DNA of 64,000 nt, from contig CAYGDX010000004.1 of NCBI GenBank assembly GCA_964348825.1, positions 517 through 64,516 of the forward strand, given 5' to 3'. Origin of the DNA: an uncultured Gammaproteobacteria bacterium (GTDB lineage Bacteria > Patescibacteriota > Patescibacteriia > Veblenbacterales > UBA10138). Under the pieces are notes generated by a model that made no database searches, had not been told where the DNA came from, and was given only the letters and a program-made list of their open reading frames with translations. Position numbers and translations under genes: made by a program. Below, in pieces: positions 19,880 to 32,414 of the stretch (position 1 is the stretch's first letter; the number at the start of each line of letters is the position of its first letter).

Positions 19880-19935
19880 TAAAACACAAAATCCCCTCCG
19901 ATAGTCCGCCAACTGGCGGAATCGGAGGGGATTTT
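19880..19935. terminator. Long hairpin AAAATCCCCTCCGAT-[AGTCCGCCAACTGGCGGA]-ATCGGAGGGGATTTT between convergent genes
   Basis: 15-bp perfect stem with a palindromic loop, positioned at convergent gene ends. Confidence 0.55.
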
Positions 19936-20028
19936 GTACAAAAGTGGATAGCTTTGGTTAAAACCCTCTTGCTTATCTACTTGGGCTTCGCCCCCAAAAC
20001 TTTTCGGCGGACGGATTTTTCGGCGGAC

Positions 20029-21495
20029 TTATGGATTTTTAATCAATTTCATCAATTCCTCAATTGATGACTTTAGCTCTTGCGGAGTATATCCGCCATT
20101 GCTCGTATTTTCTGGGTGGTGAATCGAATTTCTAACGAAAGTCATCAACGACACATCTTCGGATTGTTGTGCTTTCCCATTTGCTATTTTAACCCATTTT
20201 TTAGATTTTGTAATGCTCTTGGTTGTAAAATATACTTCAACTTGGTCTATGCTGTATTTTTGCTGTGTTTCCTGCAAGTGTCCATAAAGCTCATTATGAA
20301 ATTCAATTGTTGGTAAATCATACGCAGAATAATTTATCTCGCCCCAAGACGGACTCCACGGGAAAATGCCGAACTGCAAACCAGTATTTTCTACCGAAAT
20401 TCCATCGTCAGTATTTTTCGTGATCAATAATTCAATTTGGGGGTTACTTAAACAATTCTTGAAAAAATATGGGGAGTGGGTGGAAATAAAAACTTGATTT
20501 GTTTTTGAAAATTCTATGAGATATTGGACAAACTTTTCTTGCAGGTGTGGGTGTAAATGAAGCTCTGGCTCGTCAATCAGCACAACAATCTTTTCTTTTG
20601 AGAGTGCGGCGAGTGTTTCTAAAAACAAGAGGGAGATTATCATTTCCACCCCTGAACCAAGAGTTGTAACGGGCAAATCAAGTTTTTCTAGTTTTTGTGA
20701 AAGAAAAGCACTATCAAATGGAGCGTTGCTATCAATAAAAGAAAGATCAATCGTATCAACTTCGAAATCCTTTAATTTTTTATTAAGAACCTCAAAACAC
20801 TTTTTCATTGAAGCGTCGTCAATCTTGCTTACTATTTCTTTTTCAAAAGTGTTTTTCTTTGCAAAAAAAGTTTCTTCTCCTTCGGCAACTGTTTCTTCTC
20901 GGACACTTTTCGAAAACCGCCAATTATAATCATCAAAAACAGAAGAAGCGGAGGAATTATAACCTCTTTGCAGTTGCTTCTCTCTATTTTTTCCAAAATA
21001 AAAACTCTTTGTAAACCCCTCTAAATCAACTTGAGATAAAGACAAAAGTCTTTCATCAAATTGATACTTTGTTCCAGTACCTCTTGTTATTTCCCAACCC
21101 TTTTCATTATCTTTTGGTCTGTTCGGAATAACATGATGAGATAAAACCACAATATCCGAAAACGCTTTGCCGTTAGCGGCGCGGTCTCTTTTCTTTATTT
21201 CTAAATAAACACCATTACATTCAACTTTTTGCGTAGTATATCCATCTGGCAACTTGGCGGTAAAAACTGAATCGAACTCAATTTTTATAATAATCGAATC
21301 ATCTGACCCATTGTAAAAATCTGTATGCTTAATTCTTCCAGATAAAAAATAGGGAGAAAGAACAAAATTTATTGCTTCAATAATCGAAGTTTTACCCGTT
21401 CCATTGTTCCCAATAAAAAGCGACAGATCTTTTGCCTCAAAAGAAATCTCTTTGATTGATCTAAAATTTTTAATTGATACTTTTGAGATTCTCAT
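20029..21495 (-). CDS. ABC-type ATPase of the OLD/GajA/PtuA-like (AAA_21/AAA_15) family, no Toprim detected
   Basis: N-terminus MRISKVSIKNFRSIKEISF...FIGNNGTGKTS (Walker A). VLIDEPELHLHPHLQ Walker B/D-loop. STHSP H-loop. Start overlaps the upstream gene by 4 nt (ATGA). Confidence 0.65.
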   Translation of the reverse strand: MRISKVSIKNFRSIKEISFEAKDLSLFIGNNGTGKTSIIEAINFVLSPYFLSGRIKHTDFYNGSDDSIIIKIEFDSVFTAKLPDGYTTQKVECNGVYLEIKKRDRAANGKAFSDIVVLSHHVIPNRPKDNEKGWEITRGTGTKYQFDERLLSLSQVDLEGFTKSFYFGKNREKQLQRGYNSSASSVFDDYNWRFSKSVREETVAEGEETFFAKKNTFEKEIVSKIDDASMKKCFEVLNKKLKDFEVDTIDLSFIDSNAPFDSAFLSQKLEKLDLPVTTLGSGVEMIISLLFLETLAALSKEKIVVLIDEPELHLHPHLQEKFVQYLIEFSKTNQVFISTHSPYFFKNCLSNPQIELLITKNTDDGISVENTGLQFGIFPWSPSWGEINYSAYDLPTIEFHNELYGHLQETQQKYSIDQVEVYFTTKSITKSKKWVKIANGKAQQSEDVSLMTFVRNSIHHPENTSNGGYTPQELKSSIEELMKLIKNP

Positions 21496-23009
21496 AAAGT
21501 TGCTTCATTCAACGTTCTCTTTTCCTCAAGACCGTGGACAAATTTATCAATATCCGAAATTCTTACTTCCAAACCATCCTTTTTGATAAAATCAAAATAG
21601 CGTTCAGTATCAATGAAGGATTTTGGTGAGATAAATACAGAATATGATTTTGTACCTTTCTTTACATACTCCTCAAGATGTCGGTGTACTGAAAATGACT
21701 CTCTAATATGTTGCTGTGTGCCTGTTAGTAAAGTCACTTCTATCAATACGGTGTCCTTATTTTCTAAACATTCAATATCTGGGTTTCCACCAGAAGCAAA
21801 ACTTGTCGGTAAACCCTCATCATCTGAAACAAAATTTGGCTTTACTACAACATTTGGTAATTTTTTGAGAATAGCCAAAGAGGTTAAAAACTCTAAACGC
21901 AAAGGCTGTTCGATCACCCGCAAAATATCGTCTTCGGAAGATTTTTTCTGCGCTAAATTAAGCATTTCGGTTTTAATTGATTTCCACGCATAATGATTTA
22001 CCCATTTTTCCAACTCTGCTTTAGTCGTTCTAATAGGAGTTTCATAGACGGAGAGCGTTGCAATCAAATTGGTGTCCACTTTGCCAATATAATTAAAATA
22101 ATCTTTTTCAGTCGTAAAGGTTGGATAAGAAATATAATTTTCTAAAATATAATTTACAGTCGCAATTTCTTTTGTGTTGATGTCAATGAAACGACCACCA
22201 CCACGCAAAGAAAATAAACCAGTTAAACGCATTTTACGAATAAAATCATCGGGATAATCGCCCAAGATAGAATTATCGTCTCTTTTGGTCTCGTTTAATA
22301 AGTCATAGCAAAGATCTAAAACTATCTCGTTGCTTGGCGAATAGCCATGTTTTTTACGCAACTTTTTTATTTGACGATATAAACTTTCGGCATTATCATT
22401 TTGCCAACAGAGCAATAACGGAATTTCTAACCTTGAAATACCCGTGCCATTATAGGCAGGGTCATTGTCTAGGAGTTTTATTGTTTGTATCAGCAATATC
22501 AATGGTACATTTTTATTTAAAACTCTACGAAACGGATTTTGTCGCTGATATTTTGCGAAAGCATTAGCAAAAACCATCAATTCGTTTTCGGGTTTTACTT
22601 TATCCAATATCATTTTCCCGCTTTCGGAAAATTTTATTTCTTCATTTGGCCAATACCAAATAAAACCAAGTTCTTTGGCAATTTTAAACCAAGTATCAAA
22701 TCTTGATGGCCAACCTTTTTCAAAACCCGCCTCTTTATGGCTTTGCGGATTGTCATTAAATACTTTTTCGGTTTCAGCCTCGCTTAGTTCTATTTCGTTT
22801 TTCCATTTACCTTTTACTACTTGCGTTATTTTCATGGGTTGATATAACCCTTTTTGAATCAAGATTTTAGCTACTTTATCAATAATTTCGTTTGTTAAAA
22901 TTTTGCCATCATATTCAGCAAGCACGGTTAAAAAATCCTTTAGTCGTTCAGGATTTCTCATTGTTGTCGTAAATAATAATGGTTTATATTCAGATTGTCG
23001 TTTTTTCAT
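21492..23009 (-). CDS. Hypothetical 505-aa protein; candidate restriction endonuclease (C-terminal PD-(D/E)xK-like segment GNPDIECL...LIEVTLL)
   Basis: Operonic, overlapping both neighbours. Weak PD...E.T/K-like motif near the C-terminus. Assignment is inference. Confidence 0.35.
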   Translation of the reverse strand: MKKRQSEYKPLLFTTTMRNPERLKDFLTVLAEYDGKILTNEIIDKVAKILIQKGLYQPMKITQVVKGKWKNEIELSEAETEKVFNDNPQSHKEAGFEKGWPSRFDTWFKIAKELGFIWYWPNEEIKFSESGKMILDKVKPENELMVFANAFAKYQRQNPFRRVLNKNVPLILLIQTIKLLDNDPAYNGTGISRLEIPLLLCWQNDNAESLYRQIKKLRKKHGYSPSNEIVLDLCYDLLNETKRDDNSILGDYPDDFIRKMRLTGLFSLRGGGRFIDINTKEIATVNYILENYISYPTFTTEKDYFNYIGKVDTNLIATLSVYETPIRTTKAELEKWVNHYAWKSIKTEMLNLAQKKSSEDDILRVIEQPLRLEFLTSLAILKKLPNVVVKPNFVSDDEGLPTSFASGGNPDIECLENKDTVLIEVTLLTGTQQHIRESFSVHRHLEEYVKKGTKSYSVFISPKSFIDTERYFDFIKKDGLEVRISDIDKFVHGLEEKRTLNEATL

Positions 23010-23013
23010 AATT

Positions 23014-23919
23014 TTAATAGTTAGTGATCAAGACTTCTTTGATTATCTTTTTCCCATTATTGTGGTAACTAATATAGTTGCTTTCAATTTTGTGTACTTT
23101 GTATTGTTCCATCCACTCTATCAAAAGGTCATTTTTGCTTCCATTGTAATGTGTAACATTTGATAAAGCAAATTTAACGCCTCTTTTGTCTAAATTATCG
23201 ATTAAGTCTAACAAGTCAGATTCTGATTTTGAATCCCAAAACTTATTATATTCGCTTGCGGTTATTAAGTAGGGCGGATCTAAATAAACAAAATCATTTT
23301 TAAAATATTGTTTCTCTGAAAAAAACTTTTTAAAATCATTCGATGTAATTGTGATTTTCTTATTATTTACAAAATCAAAATAGCCATTTAGGGCATTGAC
23401 TACATTTTTGTTAAAATCAACATTCCCGACAGGTAGATTAAATTTGCCACCACCATTAAATCTCAACATTCTGTTAAACCCATATATAAGTAAAACATAC
23501 AAAATCAGAGGGTCATTTTTTTTGTTATTATTTACACATACTCTCAATTTTTCGTATCCCTCTTTGTTAAATCGGGCGAAATAAGTTTTTTTCCATTCTT
23601 TTTTTAGTGAATCGGGAATTATATCTTCTTTGTAAGATTTGGATAATTTATATTCGGATATTACTTTTTCAACGCTTTTAAAAAACGGGCTTGGATTGTC
23701 TGCATTTTTCATTAAAAACTTATGTATGTTGATGAGATGTTTGTTTATATCATTTAAAAAATACTTCTTCGCTTCAATGTTCAAAAATACAGTGCCTCCG
23801 CCAACAAAAGGTTCGTAAAAATTATTCACTTCTTTGGGAAATAAATTTATCAGTTGCTTCATTAATTTGTATTTATCCCCAACATAAAATAACGGGGATC
23901 TTTTGATTTTGTTATTCAT
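23014..23919 (-). CDS. D12-class (Dam-like) N6-adenine DNA methyltransferase
   Basis: Motif I FYEPFVGGGTVFLN. Motif IV YLDPPY. N-terminal YVGDKYKL. Alpha-group motif order. Confidence 0.8.
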   Translation of the reverse strand: MNNKIKRSPLFYVGDKYKLMKQLINLFPKEVNNFYEPFVGGGTVFLNIEAKKYFLNDINKHLINIHKFLMKNADNPSPFFKSVEKVISEYKLSKSYKEDIIPDSLKKEWKKTYFARFNKEGYEKLRVCVNNNKKNDPLILYVLLIYGFNRMLRFNGGGKFNLPVGNVDFNKNVVNALNGYFDFVNNKKITITSNDFKKFFSEKQYFKNDFVYLDPPYLITASEYNKFWDSKSESDLLDLIDNLDKRGVKFALSNVTHYNGSKNDLLIEWMEQYKVHKIESNYISYHNNGKKIIKEVLITNY

Positions 23920-25723
23920 GTTGGTTTTTAGTTACGAACAAATACTCTTTGTGATTATTGAAATTTGTATTTCCGGCATTAAAATGTCTATAATTTTTTT
24001 CAAAAACTTTTGTTTTACCTTTTGCTTGTAAGATTTTCTCAATTTCTTGAAGTGTGATTTTATTTTTTGATGAGTTACTTTTTGAATCGTATGTATTATT
24101 GTACGAAACAACCAAAAATCGAGCATCAATATCTCTCACAAGCTCTGCAAATTTTTCTTTGGCATTAGCTCGGCAGTAATCGCTCATATTTTCTGGATCT
24201 GGTTTTAGCGCAACTCCATAAAGTTTTGGCTTATCCCATTTGGTCAATGTTTCAAGTACATGATAAAAACGACTGTATTGTCTGGAATTATAGGGCGGAT
24301 CAATATAAACCACATCTGCTTTTATCTTTTTTGCCAGAACATTTGTGTCTTCTTGAAAAATAGATATTTCTTGAGTATTAATCGGATCAATCGGTTTCAT
24401 GAAAAAACTATCATTTACAAAATCTTTTTTAAAATAAGCATCAAAATGTCCAACGGTATTAGCGATTTTGTCAGCCGTATAAAGCAATGATGCAATCAGT
24501 ATAAAATATTCTCTTTCTGTTAAATTGTTTTTGTTTTCTTCAATGTTTTCCCTGATAAAGCCGATAATTTTAGCTGAATTATTGCTGAAAAATTTACCGC
24601 CAAAGTTTTTGGAAAAATAATTATCTTCTAAATCTCCACCATAAATATTATTGTAGTTCTTAATAATGCCGTCTATCTTATTTTTGTCCCACGCTTCTTT
24701 TCCAAAAAAGGCACGATATATTATGTAATTGGAATGTAAAAAATCATTTAATAATACTTTTTTAAAGTGTTTTGTCGCTACAGCAGATACAACCCCCGTC
24801 CCAGCAAAAACATCTGCAAAAGAATTTCCGCTACATTCTTTGTTTATAATCGAAAAAATCCATTCAATTAGTTTGTGCTTATTCCCTATATATCTGCGAT
24901 TATGTAATTGGATATGATTTTCTTTTACTTGTGGGATGTAGAAATAATTTTCTTGAATTTTTTCAGCAGTTATTTCATAAGTTGGTTTTTCAATTTCAAG
25001 TAAGGCGAAAAGAGTGCCCTGTATTCCGTCTGCAACATAATCAAAACCACCCTTTTGTTTTTTTAGTTTTTCGTGAAAACTGTAATGATCGTTTTCGGAG
25101 ATAATAATGAAATCAATAACAGGTATTCCCATTATTTCTCCTGCTTGAACTATTTTTTCGACAATTTGATTATCTTTTTCACTTGGTGAAGAATCGCCCG
25201 ATGGATGGTTGTGAATTAAGATAACGCTAGCGGCGTTTAATTCTGTTGCCGGATAAAAGATTTCTCTTGGATGTAGCAATGTTTTATCTAGTAATCCTAC
25301 ACTAACAATTTCCTTTTTGAGGAGAAAATTTCTTGCGTTAAGATATAAACAAACTAGGTGTTCTTTTTTCTTATCTCTTAAATCGTAGGTGAGTTGTAGA
25401 ACATCTTGAGAATTTTTAATAATAGTCTCGTTTGATTTTTCATCCGCATAGAATCTTTTGACCAATGAAATTGCGGAAGCAATTTGTAGTGCCTTGGCTT
25501 GGCCAATCCCTGAAATTTCCAAAAGATCATCAACGGTTATATTTAAAAAGTTTTTACCAAACTTTTTGATAATACTCTCTGAAAGTTCCCTGACATTTTT
25601 ACCCTTTATGCCACTACCTAAAAGAATTGCCAAAAGATCACTTTTTGAAAGAGCATCAGCTCCTTTTTGGAGGAATCGTTCGCGTGGTCTATCAATTTTT
25701 GGAATGTCTTTAAGCTTTCCCAT
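23912..25723 (-). CDS. Fusion protein: N-terminal RadC-like JAB/MPN domain plus C-terminal D12-class (Dam-like) N6-adenine DNA methyltransferase
   Basis: RadC segment PRERFL...LLAILLGSG...HNHPSGDSSPSEKD (JAMM motif). MTase segment RYIGNKHKL...FADVFAGTGVV (FxGxG), VVYIDPPYN, FLVVSYNNT. Confidence 0.75.
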   Translation of the reverse strand: MGKLKDIPKIDRPRERFLQKGADALSKSDLLAILLGSGIKGKNVRELSESIIKKFGKNFLNITVDDLLEISGIGQAKALQIASAISLVKRFYADEKSNETIIKNSQDVLQLTYDLRDKKKEHLVCLYLNARNFLLKKEIVSVGLLDKTLLHPREIFYPATELNAASVILIHNHPSGDSSPSEKDNQIVEKIVQAGEIMGIPVIDFIIISENDHYSFHEKLKKQKGGFDYVADGIQGTLFALLEIEKPTYEITAEKIQENYFYIPQVKENHIQLHNRRYIGNKHKLIEWIFSIINKECSGNSFADVFAGTGVVSAVATKHFKKVLLNDFLHSNYIIYRAFFGKEAWDKNKIDGIIKNYNNIYGGDLEDNYFSKNFGGKFFSNNSAKIIGFIRENIEENKNNLTEREYFILIASLLYTADKIANTVGHFDAYFKKDFVNDSFFMKPIDPINTQEISIFQEDTNVLAKKIKADVVYIDPPYNSRQYSRFYHVLETLTKWDKPKLYGVALKPDPENMSDYCRANAKEKFAELVRDIDARFLVVSYNNTYDSKSNSSKNKITLQEIEKILQAKGKTKVFEKNYRHFNAGNTNFNNHKEYLFVTKNQHE

Positions 25724-25725
25724 AT

Positions 25726-26574
25726 TTATTTCCTATAAACTTCTTCTAATGTCTTACCACTTTCCGTTTTCCATTTTTTCCAACCGCTAGTTGAATTTCC
25801 CAAAACGATGTCTGATGCGGCGCTTGGACTATTAAAAACATAATCCTTAACAAAAACATATAAGTCATCGCCTCTTTTTTCGAGATAATTGTTTTTCAAT
25901 AACTTTTCTATAATTTTCTGATTACGATCAATAACTGCCTTCGAAATATCGGTTGTTGCGGTTGAATCTTTATAAACAACAAAGCCATCGTTTGTCATAC
26001 GACCAGTTGCTAAAGCGTCTTTACCCCTACAAGTAAAAAGAGGGTCTGATATATTTTTTTGTTCTTTAGAAATAACTTCTTGCAAAATTGGGTAGCCAAG
26101 GGCAGAAAACAAAAGTTTCAGGTTTTCCAAAAATTCTTCCATCTCGGCAATATCTGCTTCAGATAAAGAAGGTAAAGATGATTCTGTGCCATTTTCTAAA
26201 TTAAACCTTTTTGCCTTAGTTGCTAAAGTTAAGCATCTACTCTCGAGATATCTAACATGAGCTTTTGTTAAATTATTATCTTTACTCACAAATGCTACTG
26301 CGATTTGCCAAAAATCTTTCGAGCCATCATGAGTTGATAATCTATTCCATAAATTTTCTGCCTCTCCCACATATGCAGTGGGTAATAGTGCTTCTTCACT
26401 CTCTTTACCTATCAGAAAATAAACTGCTGGCTTGTTACATTCAGGGCGTTGTTTTATTTCTTTAAGTTTATTTCTAGGGATAACAATTGCTTGACCAACC
26501 CAATTACTTAATTCAGCGGTTTTTAGGCCGTTAGGTTCGCCGTCAATCAAAAATATTTTTATAGTTTTTGCCAT
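25726..26574 (-). CDS. GIY-YIG-like nuclease domain protein with DUF4357-like C-terminal domain
   Basis: N-terminal PAVYFLIGK...AYVGEAENLWNRLSTH resembles the GIY-YIG core. C-terminal FTCRGKDALATGRMTNDGFVVYKDS resembles DUF4357. First gene of the operon. Confidence 0.5.
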   Translation of the reverse strand: MAKTIKIFLIDGEPNGLKTAELSNWVGQAIVIPRNKLKEIKQRPECNKPAVYFLIGKESEEALLPTAYVGEAENLWNRLSTHDGSKDFWQIAVAFVSKDNNLTKAHVRYLESRCLTLATKAKRFNLENGTESSLPSLSEADIAEMEEFLENLKLLFSALGYPILQEVISKEQKNISDPLFTCRGKDALATGRMTNDGFVVYKDSTATTDISKAVIDRNQKIIEKLLKNNYLEKRGDDLYVFVKDYVFNSPSAASDIVLGNSTSGWKKWKTESGKTLEEVYRK

Positions 26575-26731: not shown

Positions 26732-26912
26732 TTTTATTTCTTAATACTACAATGATACGTAATTTAAACAATTTTGTAAACGGATTTTTTAAGTGGTCGT
26801 GAAACAAAAATCAATAAAAGTTGGTTAATATTAGGCGATTTTTATCAAAAACAAAAACACCCTAAAATTCTCTGGGCGAGGAATAGAGGGTGTTTTTTAT
26901 CTATCTATATTA

Positions 26913-27847: not shown

Positions 27848-29332
27848 TTATTTTTTTTCAGCTAATTTTTGAAACAAGTGTTTGGCAACTAATACATCAG
27901 TTATCAAGTACGTGCCAGTATCAATAGCTAATTGACGTATCGCTTCGCCATCGGTTTCAGTTTGTCCTTGGGCTGGACTTGGGATATTAATTACATTGGT
28001 TAGTACTTTATGCTGCAATAAATCAGCCAAGTTAGGTTTACCTGTCTCACTTATTTTATGCACGAGTGTGGTTGATATTCCATGTTCGTGTAAAAATTGG
28101 TGAGTACCTGAAGTTGTATAAAGTACGATTCCGTTGTTGGCGATCATTTGAATGCTCGGCAGTAGTTCAGCTTTGGATCCATCAGCAATACTTAAAAGTA
28201 TAGTGCGTGGAGCCGGTGATAATATAGAATCAATGCCTTGACGTCGGGAATCAAAATCTCCTGTGAATCTGCCATATAAATTAGCAGGCGCACAATCACG
28301 AATATCAGGGAATCCGAGTATTGATTGAATTACTCGTTCAAAACCCATTCCATATCCAGCGTGAGGTTTTATAAATCCGCTTCCAACTACATCTTCAATA
28401 TACCATTTAAAATCATCATATGTTCCTCCGTTTTCTGTGAGTATTCGGAACATATCAGATGCCAATAGTCTATTTTTGAGTAGTATTGGATCAGGTTCAC
28501 GTACTGCCGAACCGACACTTTCACCGGAACCATATAATATTAAATCAGCGCTGAATACTTGTAGGGGATTTTTGGGATTTGGCATCATATTAAAGAACTT
28601 TATTGCTGTTGGATAATGGGTAATAAATACCGGACATTTACCAAAGCGTTTTGCTATTTTGTTCATTTCTATTACCACAACTTGTTCATGCTTATCCTTT
28701 AAATCATCACCCCATTTTAACTCCGGGTAACCATTTTGTTGTAATAGAATAATTGCTTCGTCATAAGTGATTCGTAAAAATGGATATTTTATTATTTCCA
28801 GGAGCTCTTTTGTATTTTGACCATAAAATTCCAAAGTATCCGGATGATTTACGATTATTGTATTAACAAAATGCCTAACCGCCGACTCAATTCGTTGTAA
28901 CAAGTGTTCAAACATTCGTTCAGGGTTGAATTGGCTTTCGCCTTCTACTGATGGCCAACTAAATTCTTCTTCACCTAAGGAGAATTCAAATAAATGACGA
29001 CAATCTTCTACACCTTCGTCACGGAAGCTGCGCATAATAGTGAATACACCAGGATAAAACATTTGAAAAAGTTCTAGAGCTAGTTGCCCAGTTTGAGGTG
29101 CATAAAGTGGCAGGTTTAATTTGTTGAGTATTCGGTATAGTGTCTTTATTTGTTCGCAAGCACCCGTTACTCCGACCATTTGTGGTACCAATACATATTT
29201 TAAGCCAGTAGTTGGGTAATAGCTTAAAGCTGTTAAATGTAGAGTGGTGTGTAACTCCATAATTCGTTGAACATGCTCGTAGTAGTTAACATTAATAGGT
29301 CCTTTTAAAGTTTGGATAGTTAGATTTTGCAT
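27848..29332 (-). CDS. Class IIb aminoacyl-tRNA-synthetase-like catalytic core (AsnA/EpmA/AspRS-like, no anticodon-binding domain) fused to a C-terminal MGS-like domain
   Basis: Motif 2 region FTIMRSFRDEGVEDCRHLFEFSLGE (compare AspRS CFRDED..RQPEFTQ). Upstream GA..F and QSPQL-like segments. C-terminus VINIPS...GEAIRQLAIDTG..LITD resembles an MGS-like fold. Confidence 0.5.
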   Translation of the reverse strand: MQNLTIQTLKGPINVNYYEHVQRIMELHTTLHLTALSYYPTTGLKYVLVPQMVGVTGACEQIKTLYRILNKLNLPLYAPQTGQLALELFQMFYPGVFTIMRSFRDEGVEDCRHLFEFSLGEEEFSWPSVEGESQFNPERMFEHLLQRIESAVRHFVNTIIVNHPDTLEFYGQNTKELLEIIKYPFLRITYDEAIILLQQNGYPELKWGDDLKDKHEQVVVIEMNKIAKRFGKCPVFITHYPTAIKFFNMMPNPKNPLQVFSADLILYGSGESVGSAVREPDPILLKNRLLASDMFRILTENGGTYDDFKWYIEDVVGSGFIKPHAGYGMGFERVIQSILGFPDIRDCAPANLYGRFTGDFDSRRQGIDSILSPAPRTILLSIADGSKAELLPSIQMIANNGIVLYTTSGTHQFLHEHGISTTLVHKISETGKPNLADLLQHKVLTNVINIPSPAQGQTETDGEAIRQLAIDTGTYLITDVLVAKHLFQKLAEKK

Positions 29333-32337: not shown

Positions 32338-32414
32338 TGGTGCGCACTCCTGGATTCGAACCAGGGACCGGACGTGTATAAGACGTCTGCTCTGACCAGC
32401 TGAGCTAAGTGCGC
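32338..32414 (-). tRNA. tRNA with anticodon UAU (tRNA-Ile2-like, AUA-reading), CCA encoded
   Basis: Reverse complement reads GCGCACTTAGCTCAGCTGGTCAGAGCAGACGTCTTATACACGTCCGGTCCCTGGTTCGAATCCAGGAGTGCGCACCA. Anticodon loop CTTATAC. Confidence 0.7.

Follow-up and report, generated by a model that had tools for sequence, protein, structure and literature searches.

RadC heads on restriction-modification methyltransferases form a modular family found mainly in Patescibacteria genomes

To our knowledge, RadC is among the most widespread bacterial proteins without a known biochemical function. The gene described here, RadC-M1, encodes a full-length RadC joined to an adenine methyltransferase and is located in a 64,000-nucleotide stretch of contig CAYGDX010000004.1 (assembly GCA_964348825.1), the whole of which is referred to as the window. 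The RadC part, or head, shares with the RadC/YicR family (PF04002 + PF20582; NF000642; structure 2QLC) the two-domain architecture and an intact JAMM metal site and passes the equivalog cutoff of the family, whereas family members are standalone proteins of about 220 residues and the fusion adds a C-terminal DYVxDGxQxxLF extension and the methyltransferase. The closest standalone RadC representatives were only about 40-50% identical to the head. The role of RadC in DNA repair or transformation is disputed, with "RadC, a misleading name?" cited in PMC5512222, PMC3239186 and PMC11981726. RadC fusions have been described with helix-hairpin-helix (HhH) domains, ArdC, a DnaG-type primase and a DinG/Rad3 helicase, and RadC is also a part of polyvalent proteins (Iyer et al. 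2011, PMC3239186; Iyer et al. 2017, PMC5512222; PMC11981726). Like RadC-M1, these fusions pair a RadC JAB domain with an enzyme that acts on DNA, and this speaks for a nucleic-acid-related function of RadC. They differ in that the partner here is a restriction-modification (R-M) methyltransferase and the head is the whole of HhH and JAB rather than JAB alone. The searchable text of the three papers did not mention a pairing of RadC with an R-M methyltransferase, and the architecture was not described in literature searches on RadC or JAB with methyltransferases, anti-phage systems, Patescibacteria or the candidate phyla radiation and competence, or on sliding-clamp motifs. An initial annotation of the window, made from its sequence, was likewise aware of no characterised fusion of this kind, and the family is apparently not yet described in the literature.

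Cassettes in which an AlwI-family endonuclease is accompanied by two D12 methyltransferases occur on Lactococcus lactis plasmid NZ_CP065734 and Helicobacter suis pHS_1 and share the three-gene core of the locus in the window, including a first methyltransferase (M1, 'DNA adenine methylase') whose domain is 51-55% identical to that of the window. These M1 proteins differ in being without RadC, and that of Lactococcus has an unrelated N-terminal extension of about 80 residues with no QxxLF, which by eye is helix-turn-helix-like. The DpnII system (DpnM/DpnA) of Streptococcus pneumoniae also has two adenine methyltransferases in one R-M operon, one being specialised for DNA state, but its endonuclease is DpnII and not an AlwI enzyme, neither methylase carries RadC and the target is the palindromic GATC. 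ParB-methylase fusions, such as Bacillus cereus Bce_0392 (mentioned in PMC5512222), similarly place an N-terminal DNA-binding or nuclease-like domain before an adenine methyltransferase, although the N-terminal fold is unrelated and has no JAMM site. RadC-M1 is also not one of the polyvalent proteins (Iyer et al. 2017), having only two enzymatic domains and being located in a chromosomal R-M operon. The new part is a conserved accessory head on a Type II modification methyltransferase, while the underlying R-M type is known.

In the open reading frame (ORF) listing of the window, RadC-M1 starts with ATG and continues for 603 codons without an internal stop. It is encoded on the minus strand, which is added here to the initial annotation, where no strand was given. 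The gene and its domains are as follows.

23912..25723, minus strand: RadC-M1 fusion gene, 603 residues plus stop codon (ORF list; Pfam and NCBIfam domains; more than 120 full-length homologous clusters)
25490..25711, minus strand: UPF0758_N (helix-hairpin-helix type) N-terminal domain of RadC, residues 5-78 (Pfam PF20582, E 4.7e-22)
25067..25420, minus strand: RadC JAB/MPN domain, residues 102-219 (Pfam PF04002, E 1.6e-37)
25262-25273, minus strand: JAMM residue E154 within HPRE
25172-25213, minus strand: JAMM residues H171, H173, S181 and D184
24881..25057, minus strand: interdomain linker, probably flexible, residues 223-281, about 55 residues (AlphaFold2 predicted local distance difference test, pLDDT, 38-59)
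23915..24892, minus strand: D12-class (alpha-type order) N6-adenine methyltransferase domain M1, residues 278-603
24788-24820, minus strand: M1 FxGxG motif (FAGTG at residues 306-310, N-terminal to DPPY)
24290-24301, minus strand: M1 DPPY motif, residues 475-478

The polypeptide is a full-length RadC followed by a probably flexible linker with an invariant peptide and an alpha-type D12 N6-adenine methyltransferase. The proposal in the initial annotation that a RadC-like JAB/MPN domain and an adenine methyltransferase form one polypeptide was borne out by the single 603-residue ORF and its Pfam and NCBIfam domains, and the domain search suggested there matched both PF04002 and PF02086 as well as the RadC hidden Markov model. 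A complete RadC domain with an intact JAMM site had also been read correctly, with HNHPSGDSSPSEKD at residues 171-184. Residues E154, H171, H173 and D184 were invariant in 41 fusions including divergent JAB variants, and position 181 was S or T. Residues 14-219 scored 217.9 bits against the RadC equivalog NF000642 (NCBIfam; cutoff 180), and RadC-M1 scored 206 bits against TIGR00608 (cutoff 133.85). The JAB domain matched Chlorobium RadC (PDB 2QLC) by sequence (E 2.8e-26, 39% identity), and its model gave a template modelling score of 0.87 and a root mean square deviation of 1.9 A against the same structure (Foldseek). The head is RadC, as annotated, but of the long chromosomal type with HhH and JAB that passes the equivalog cutoff and not the short JAB-only kind seen in prophages and conjugative elements.

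The AlphaFold2 model of the fusion was built on a shallow alignment (70 sequences, mostly above 75% identity) and had a predicted template modelling score of 0.51. In this model the UPF0758_N domain was helical, and many of its residues were invariant across the 70 sequences. The linker was the sole long low-confidence stretch, with the flanking domains at pLDDT 70-92. A reading of the linker sequence found no Met and no in-frame TTG or GTG start, so a separate methyltransferase product is not possible. M1 was matched by Pfam MethyltransfD12 (PF02086, residues 278-531, E 1.9e-36) and PADLOC MTase_II (E 1.4e-125), its C-terminal domain fold resembled E. coli Dam (4rtj; Foldseek), and an S-adenosylmethionine-binding FxGxG motif preceded the catalytic DPPY, as in the D12 class. 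The segments that had been singled out from the sequence were located at residues 302-312 (FADVFAGTGVV), 473-479 (YIDPPYN, the DPPY motif) and 536-544 (FLVVSYNNT). The label "Dam-family" held for M1 as far as the D12 class, but M1 is not Dam proper (TIGR00571, 27.3 bits vs the cutoff of 114.85, which is passed by the second methyltransferase at 152 bits).

RadC-M1 is part of a translationally coupled five-gene defence operon on the minus strand, in which neighbouring genes are spaced or overlap by 2-8 nucleotides, in the order DUF4357/PDC-S14, RadC-M1, the Dam-like second methyltransferase (M2), an AlwI-family Type IIS endonuclease and an AriA-like ATPase. The two genes that complete the R-M core are as follows.

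23014..23919, minus strand: M2, standalone Dam-family methyltransferase, 301 residues (TIGR00571, 152 bits vs 114.85; PF02086)
21492..23009, minus strand: AlwI-family Type IIS restriction endonuclease, 505 residues (PF09491, E 7.6e-41; PADLOC REase_II, E 2.7e-131)

The 8-nucleotide overlap between RadC-M1 and the standalone D12 methyltransferase that follows it, noted initially, was found at ATGAATAA, and M2 was co-conserved with M1 in the group A loci described below. The C-terminal catalytic domain of the endonuclease matched R.BspD6I/N.BspD6I, with an E value of 1.7e-10 for the R.BspD6I small subunit (2p14). An earlier comparison of the tandem methyltransferases with Type IIS systems was borne out by this AlwI-family gene after M2. 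With PF09491, PADLOC REase_II, a BspD6I-like domain and adjacent co-conserved M1 and M2, RadC-M1 is very probably the M1 of a Type IIS R-M system.

An identical protein was found on a 176.8-kb ENA contig and in an independent Logan assembly. In a search of 5.8 billion proteins, more than 120 clusters (90% identity) of 601-606 residues were recovered from many metagenome samples, and these were 78-100% identical and all carried PF20582, PF04002 and PF02086. A scan of one genome per GTDB species gave 72 loci, about 45 of which had a full-length fusion, down to 55% identity. The taxon labels of these metagenome-assembled genomes (MAGs) were taken as deposited; around half were Patescibacteria lineages, and the remainder (Gammaproteobacteria, Planctomycetia, Nanoarchaeota and others) are unverified. 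No full-length match was present in 50,697 phage records, 72,556 plasmids or IMG/VR, in which only the separate domains matched. Both halves were under strong purifying selection, and in a codon-level comparison this extended to each of the four segments (HhH, JAB, linker and methyltransferase). The ratio of nonsynonymous to synonymous substitution rates was 0.03-0.07 for the RadC head, with a synonymous rate (dS) of about 1 or more, and such low ratios with near-saturated synonymous sites indicate that the head has stayed so similar in amino-acid sequence through constraint rather than recent copying. RadC-M1 is almost certainly a real functional fusion, and a search for orthologous fusions, also proposed in the initial annotation, found many, including heads on C5-cytosine and N6_N4 methyltransferases. 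An apparent insertion of about 680 nucleotides in the gene of L003, L004 and others was discarded since tblastn had joined a weak M2 match and the ORFs there are of 603 residues. In public databases the fusions are automatically named "DNA repair protein RadC" or "D12 class N6 adenine-specific DNA methyltransferase".

A comparison of the window proteins with the 72 loci was divided into four groups. Group A had the architecture of the window, with endonucleases in three divergence classes. Group B had a head that was 78-92% identical and a D12 domain that was only 43-46% identical, followed by a different AlwI-family endonuclease, an N6_N4 M2 and a GmrSD protein. Group C (L063, L064) had a 92% identical head joined to a C5-cytosine methyltransferase, and then an R.HinP1I-family endonuclease and Vsr. 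Group D featured cassettes of M1, M2 and endonuclease without RadC on Lactococcus and Helicobacter plasmids and in MAGs from outside the candidate phyla radiation, labelled Bdellovibrionales, Margulisiibacteriota and Endomicrobium. Because this M1, M2 and AlwI core occurs elsewhere without RadC, the restriction system itself is ordinary and the RadC head is the unusual part. Further combinations included a triple RadC-C5-D12 protein (L065), a RadC-N6_N4 fusion (P0194), additional RadC-C5 fusions (P0136, P0138, P0212), a divergent RadC-D12 fusion (P0122) and a locus (L075) with RadC, a frameshift and then C5 and Eco57I-like N6 methyltransferases. P0311 had appeared to be a true standalone close relative of the head and was rejected as a frameshifted fusion from a single-cell genome.

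The RadC head was always N-terminal and without exception part of a methyltransferase, never of an endonuclease; in the two-methylase systems this methyltransferase was always M1. Identity profiles were mosaic in L006 (methyltransferase 96%, RadC 80-85%), in L036 (RadC 92%, methyltransferase 43%) and in L032/L034/L048 (JAB 55%, methyltransferase 80%), which shows that heads and tails have recombined at the domain boundary. One Patescibacteria MAG, JAHILZ01 (KR13_N2.mb.46), had three RadC-head loci with different tails (L041, L050, L064), namely a group B D12 system, a decayed group A cassette and a C5/HinP1I/Vsr system. The RadC-methyltransferase fusions are a large modular family that spans the D12, C5 and N6_N4 classes and occurs mainly in Patescibacteria MAGs. 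Its members come from different Type II systems, namely AlwI-type IIS with two kinds of M2 and HinP1I-type IIP with Vsr. The head is likely a generic accessory module that is independent of methylation chemistry.

Decayed cassettes recurred in L022, L050, L051, L057, L072 and L077 (e.g. L077:6001-10275; L057:669-3411). They consisted of the RadC head, the linker and the first 40 or so M1 residues, broken off just past FxGxG, and were followed by a Bro-N protein, a PLD/NgoFVII-like nuclease, a small ORF and a truncated AlwI endonuclease. The RadC head was intact in L051, L057 and L077 and frameshifted in L050. The common breakpoint of these cassettes suggests a single replacement event that later spread. 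In an Elusimicrobia-labelled MAG (L067:7974-10612), M1 begins with MPKIKDMPK, which is the RadC start, and retains only a remnant of the last JAB strand and the linker motif QGRLF, with a transposase-like ORF splitting the gene; this M1 seems to have lost the inside of its RadC head by deletion.

The linker contains a conserved short peptide that includes a candidate binding motif for the beta sliding clamp.

25007..25042, minus strand: conserved peptide D228-Y-V-A-D-G-I-Q235-G-T-L-F239 (conservation in fusions)
25007-25021, minus strand: QGTLF, residues 235-239, candidate beta-clamp-binding motif

The consensus of the peptide across the fusions was DYVxDGxQx[T/S]LF, in which Y229, Q235 and F239 were invariant and L238 at least 90% conserved (41 and 70 sequences). 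It was common to the D12, C5 and N6_N4 fusions, and its presence in all three classes makes it part of the head rather than of any methyltransferase. The pattern Y...Q-x-x-[LMIF]-[FL] was present in 222 of the 243 proteins that had a JAMM motif and enough tail; the third motif position was mostly T or S, and variants included the canonical QLSLF and QMGLF. Standalone RadCs end about 10 residues earlier at SFxExGLL and lack the peptide. In the shallow-alignment model, residues 231-250 had pLDDT below 50. The bacterial clamp-binding consensus is QL[S/D]LF or QxxLF, with positions 1, 4 and 5 critical and a usual location in a flexible region (PMC12309361, PMC9690074), and at the level of sequence QGTLF fits this consensus, with positions 1, 4 and 5 conserved. 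Three standalone RadC-like proteins of 269-275 residues (P0250, P0259, P0269) had the same IDF-type last strand, acidic tails and, at the very C-terminus, a related Y-x-G/A-D/E-G...L-S/x-D-L motif. The comparison of tails suggests that the peptide may be older than the methyltransferase fusions.

An in-frame A AAA AAA heptamer (25054-25060, minus strand) occurs in codons 220-222 at the boundary of RadC and linker. A programmed -1 frameshift there, giving a RadC-only product ending TKGWF*, was considered and dropped, as the heptamer is missing in the closest relatives L003 and L004. The heptamer is probably incidental, though the site could be prone to homopolymer errors or phase variation.

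The explanation that we favour, with a probability of roughly 50% for the whole, is that RadC-M1 is an R-M methylase whose head serves as a delivery or coupling module. M1 and M2 would modify opposite strands of an asymmetric site, one strand each, and the host would thereby be protected from the endonuclease. Because the head serves methyltransferases of three unrelated chemistries, it would not itself participate in methyl transfer. Its QxxLF peptide would bind the beta sliding clamp and its HhH domain would bind DNA non-specifically, such that the protective methylase travels along at the replisome and modifies new DNA before it can be cut by the endonuclease. Since the JAMM site is strictly conserved, the JAB domain would add a catalytic step at the fork, for which nucleic-acid and protein processing are both possible. 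Tethering to the clamp or replisome is a tentative element of this explanation, favoured by the fit to QxxLF, the conserved HhH domain, the indifference of the head to chemistry and the genetics of RadC, which tie it to recombination associated with replication forks (Saveson & Lovett 1999, as cited in PMC1635313). It is a possibility of a more doubtful kind that RadC itself is a replisome- or clamp-associated enzyme and that RadC with its clamp peptide was recruited repeatedly in ultra-small bacteria as the N-terminal head of R-M methylases of three chemistries, with a JAMM-dependent step on nascent or clamp-marked DNA. The proposed logic resembles that of DNMT1, which binds PCNA (PMC9690074), in that a methyltransferase would be tethered to a sliding clamp by a short linear motif and nascent DNA methylated promptly; this is an analogy only, as the clamps are unrelated (beta vs PCNA) and the motif and methyltransferase also differ.

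Several observations weigh against this explanation. QxxLF is short and degenerate and occurred once in the 45 ORFs of the window, where by a rough estimate about one occurrence is expected by chance, and the function of the motif is therefore argued solely by its conservation and its placement in a probably disordered segment. The low confidence of the linker is suggestive of disorder and not proof of it, given the shallow alignment. At its full length the conserved peptide exceeds a normal clamp-binding motif, and its DYVxDG part is left unexplained, while a minority of relatives (P0259, P0269, P0138, P0194) have an LSDL-type ending in place of LF or have no Q. Some of the carrier bins are labelled archaeal (L023, L030), in which a beta-clamp motif would be meaningless unless they are mislabelled. 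A clamp tether alone needs no intact JAMM site, which leaves the main enzyme of the head unexplained. Avoidance of the recognition site was also not apparent from k-mer counts in the 64-kb window, with 74 GGATC observed vs 51 expected and 27 GAGTC vs 32 and thus no depletion. GATC was mildly low in the window (ratio 0.73).

Patescibacteria are thought to depend on DNA uptake, and the head could be directed to that process rather than to the fork. RadC-M1 would then be a competence-linked or single-stranded DNA-directed methylase like DpnA, whose head brings the methyltransferase to incoming or recombining single strands so that acquired DNA survives the endonuclease of its own cell. The strongly conserved HhH DNA-binding domain, a head that is found only on methyltransferases and works with any methylation chemistry, and a two-methylase layout reminiscent of DpnM/DpnA would all suit such a function, as would the membership of RadC in the competence regulon of H. 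influenzae and gamma-proteobacteria (PMC1635313). Competence genes were however not near the operon in the gene list of the contig region, the doubts over RadC as a repair or transformation factor mentioned above apply here as well and the invariant QxxLF peptide is given no role, which makes this account unlikely. The invariant JAMM site and the strictly conserved peptide in a probably disordered linker directly after a protease-like domain would suit RadC-M1 as a self-processing polyprotein or proteolytic regulator, in which the JAB metalloprotease cuts at the linker peptide or close to it, thereby freeing or inactivating the methyltransferase, or else removes another protein, and in this way sets the ratio of methylase to endonuclease. 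Cleavage of the JAMM type after Gly-Gly at residues 225-226, ahead of the motif, was considered and kept as a minor rival only, as these residues are not conserved in relatives, and the peptide resembles a binding motif more than a known JAMM cleavage site. We know of no RadC shown to have protease activity. Isopeptidases are the best-known bearers of the JAB fold (PMC11981726) and protease domains process the polyvalent proteins of mobile elements (PMC5512222), but the RadC-type JAB is predicted to be without the groove for the ubiquitin tail (PMC5512222), and the chance that the head acts in this way seems slim.

Alternatively, the two halves may be functionally uncoupled, with an R-M cassette having landed beside radC, the stop codon having been lost and the composite having spread while each half does its own job. 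The R-M core works without RadC elsewhere, no second radC was found in the window, and the retention of an intact head and linker in L051, L057 and L077 after destruction of the methyltransferase suggests that the head is valuable alone. Against this, the partners of the head come from at least three unrelated methyltransferase families and are without exception methyltransferases, which is hard to obtain by chance adjacency, and the fusion-specific linker peptide is missing in standalone RadCs. Heads were also 80-92% identical across MAGs labelled as different candidate phyla while the flanks differed at every locus, which means that the head moves together with the cassettes instead of being a housekeeping gene of the resident genome. 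Uncoupled function is accordingly very unlikely. A frameshift or chimeric join that merged two genes, a concern raised with the initial annotation, has a negligible probability. One relative (L075, from a single-cell genome) is split by a frameshift at a T-run, but RadC-M1 has no stop between its domains and the exact protein occurs in two assemblies. Independent full-length copies number in the hundreds and are conserved in length, and purifying selection acts across the junction.

Coupling of the methylase to the replisome, if true, would provide a bacterial counterpart of DNMT1-PCNA, with protective methylation tied physically to the synthesis of DNA, and the fusions would act as a "Rosetta stone" for the cellular function of RadC. 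Clamp tethering would also make RadC-M1 the first bacterial replisome-coupled R-M methylase known to us and would show how streamlined Patescibacteria avoid self-restriction. The family links full RadC to R-M DNA methylation and offers a testable lead on the role of RadC, and under the automatic name "DNA repair protein RadC" active R-M systems go unnoticed in the genomes of candidate phyla.

Other features of the operon are as follows.

20029..21495, minus strand: AAA_15/AAA_21 ATPase, AriA-like, 488 residues (Pfam; PADLOC AriA, E 1.4e-40)
25726..26574, minus strand: DUF4357/RAMA-domain protein, 282 residues, candidate defence gene PDC-S14 (PF14267, E 7.9e-21; PADLOC PDC-S14, E 3.6e-107)
26752..26780, minus strand: promoter-like site upstream of the operon (10/12 hexamer matches, consensus match only)
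19886..19937, strand not given: perfect 17-bp inverted repeat after the ATPase stop codon (arms 100% complementary, 18-nucleotide loop)

The AriA-like ATPase gene overlaps the stop codon of the endonuclease by 4 nucleotides and is a variable accessory gene, with 75% identity kept only in L073 and weaker ATPases at the same position in L005 and L010. An AriB/Toprim partner was not nearby. The stop codon of the DUF4357/PDC-S14 gene is 2 nucleotides ahead of the start of the fusion, to which it is translationally coupled; in about 10 other loci this gene immediately preceded the fusion, and in L055/L056 it was downstream of the endonuclease. The N-terminal region of its product is GIY-YIG-like. 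Promoter-like sites in the region were no more numerous than in the shuffled expectation. The 17-bp inverted repeat is likely the terminator of the operon.

The genes flanking the island in the window (AsnRS-like and MscS-like) were in none of the other loci compared, and the GC content of the island was 0.31-0.35 vs about 0.38 in its surroundings. Flanking direct repeats and an adjacent tRNA or integrase were searched for as boundaries of a mobile element and none was convincing. The non-conserved flanks and lower GC content are consistent with an island that may be horizontally mobile. Elsewhere in the window, precomputed Pfam matches gave a class II aminoacyl-tRNA-synthetase-like protein (tRNA-synt_2; AsnRS/AspRS type) with a C-terminal MGS-like domain at 27848-29332 (minus strand), and ARAGORN predicted a tRNA-Ile with anticodon UAU at 32338-32414 (minus strand).

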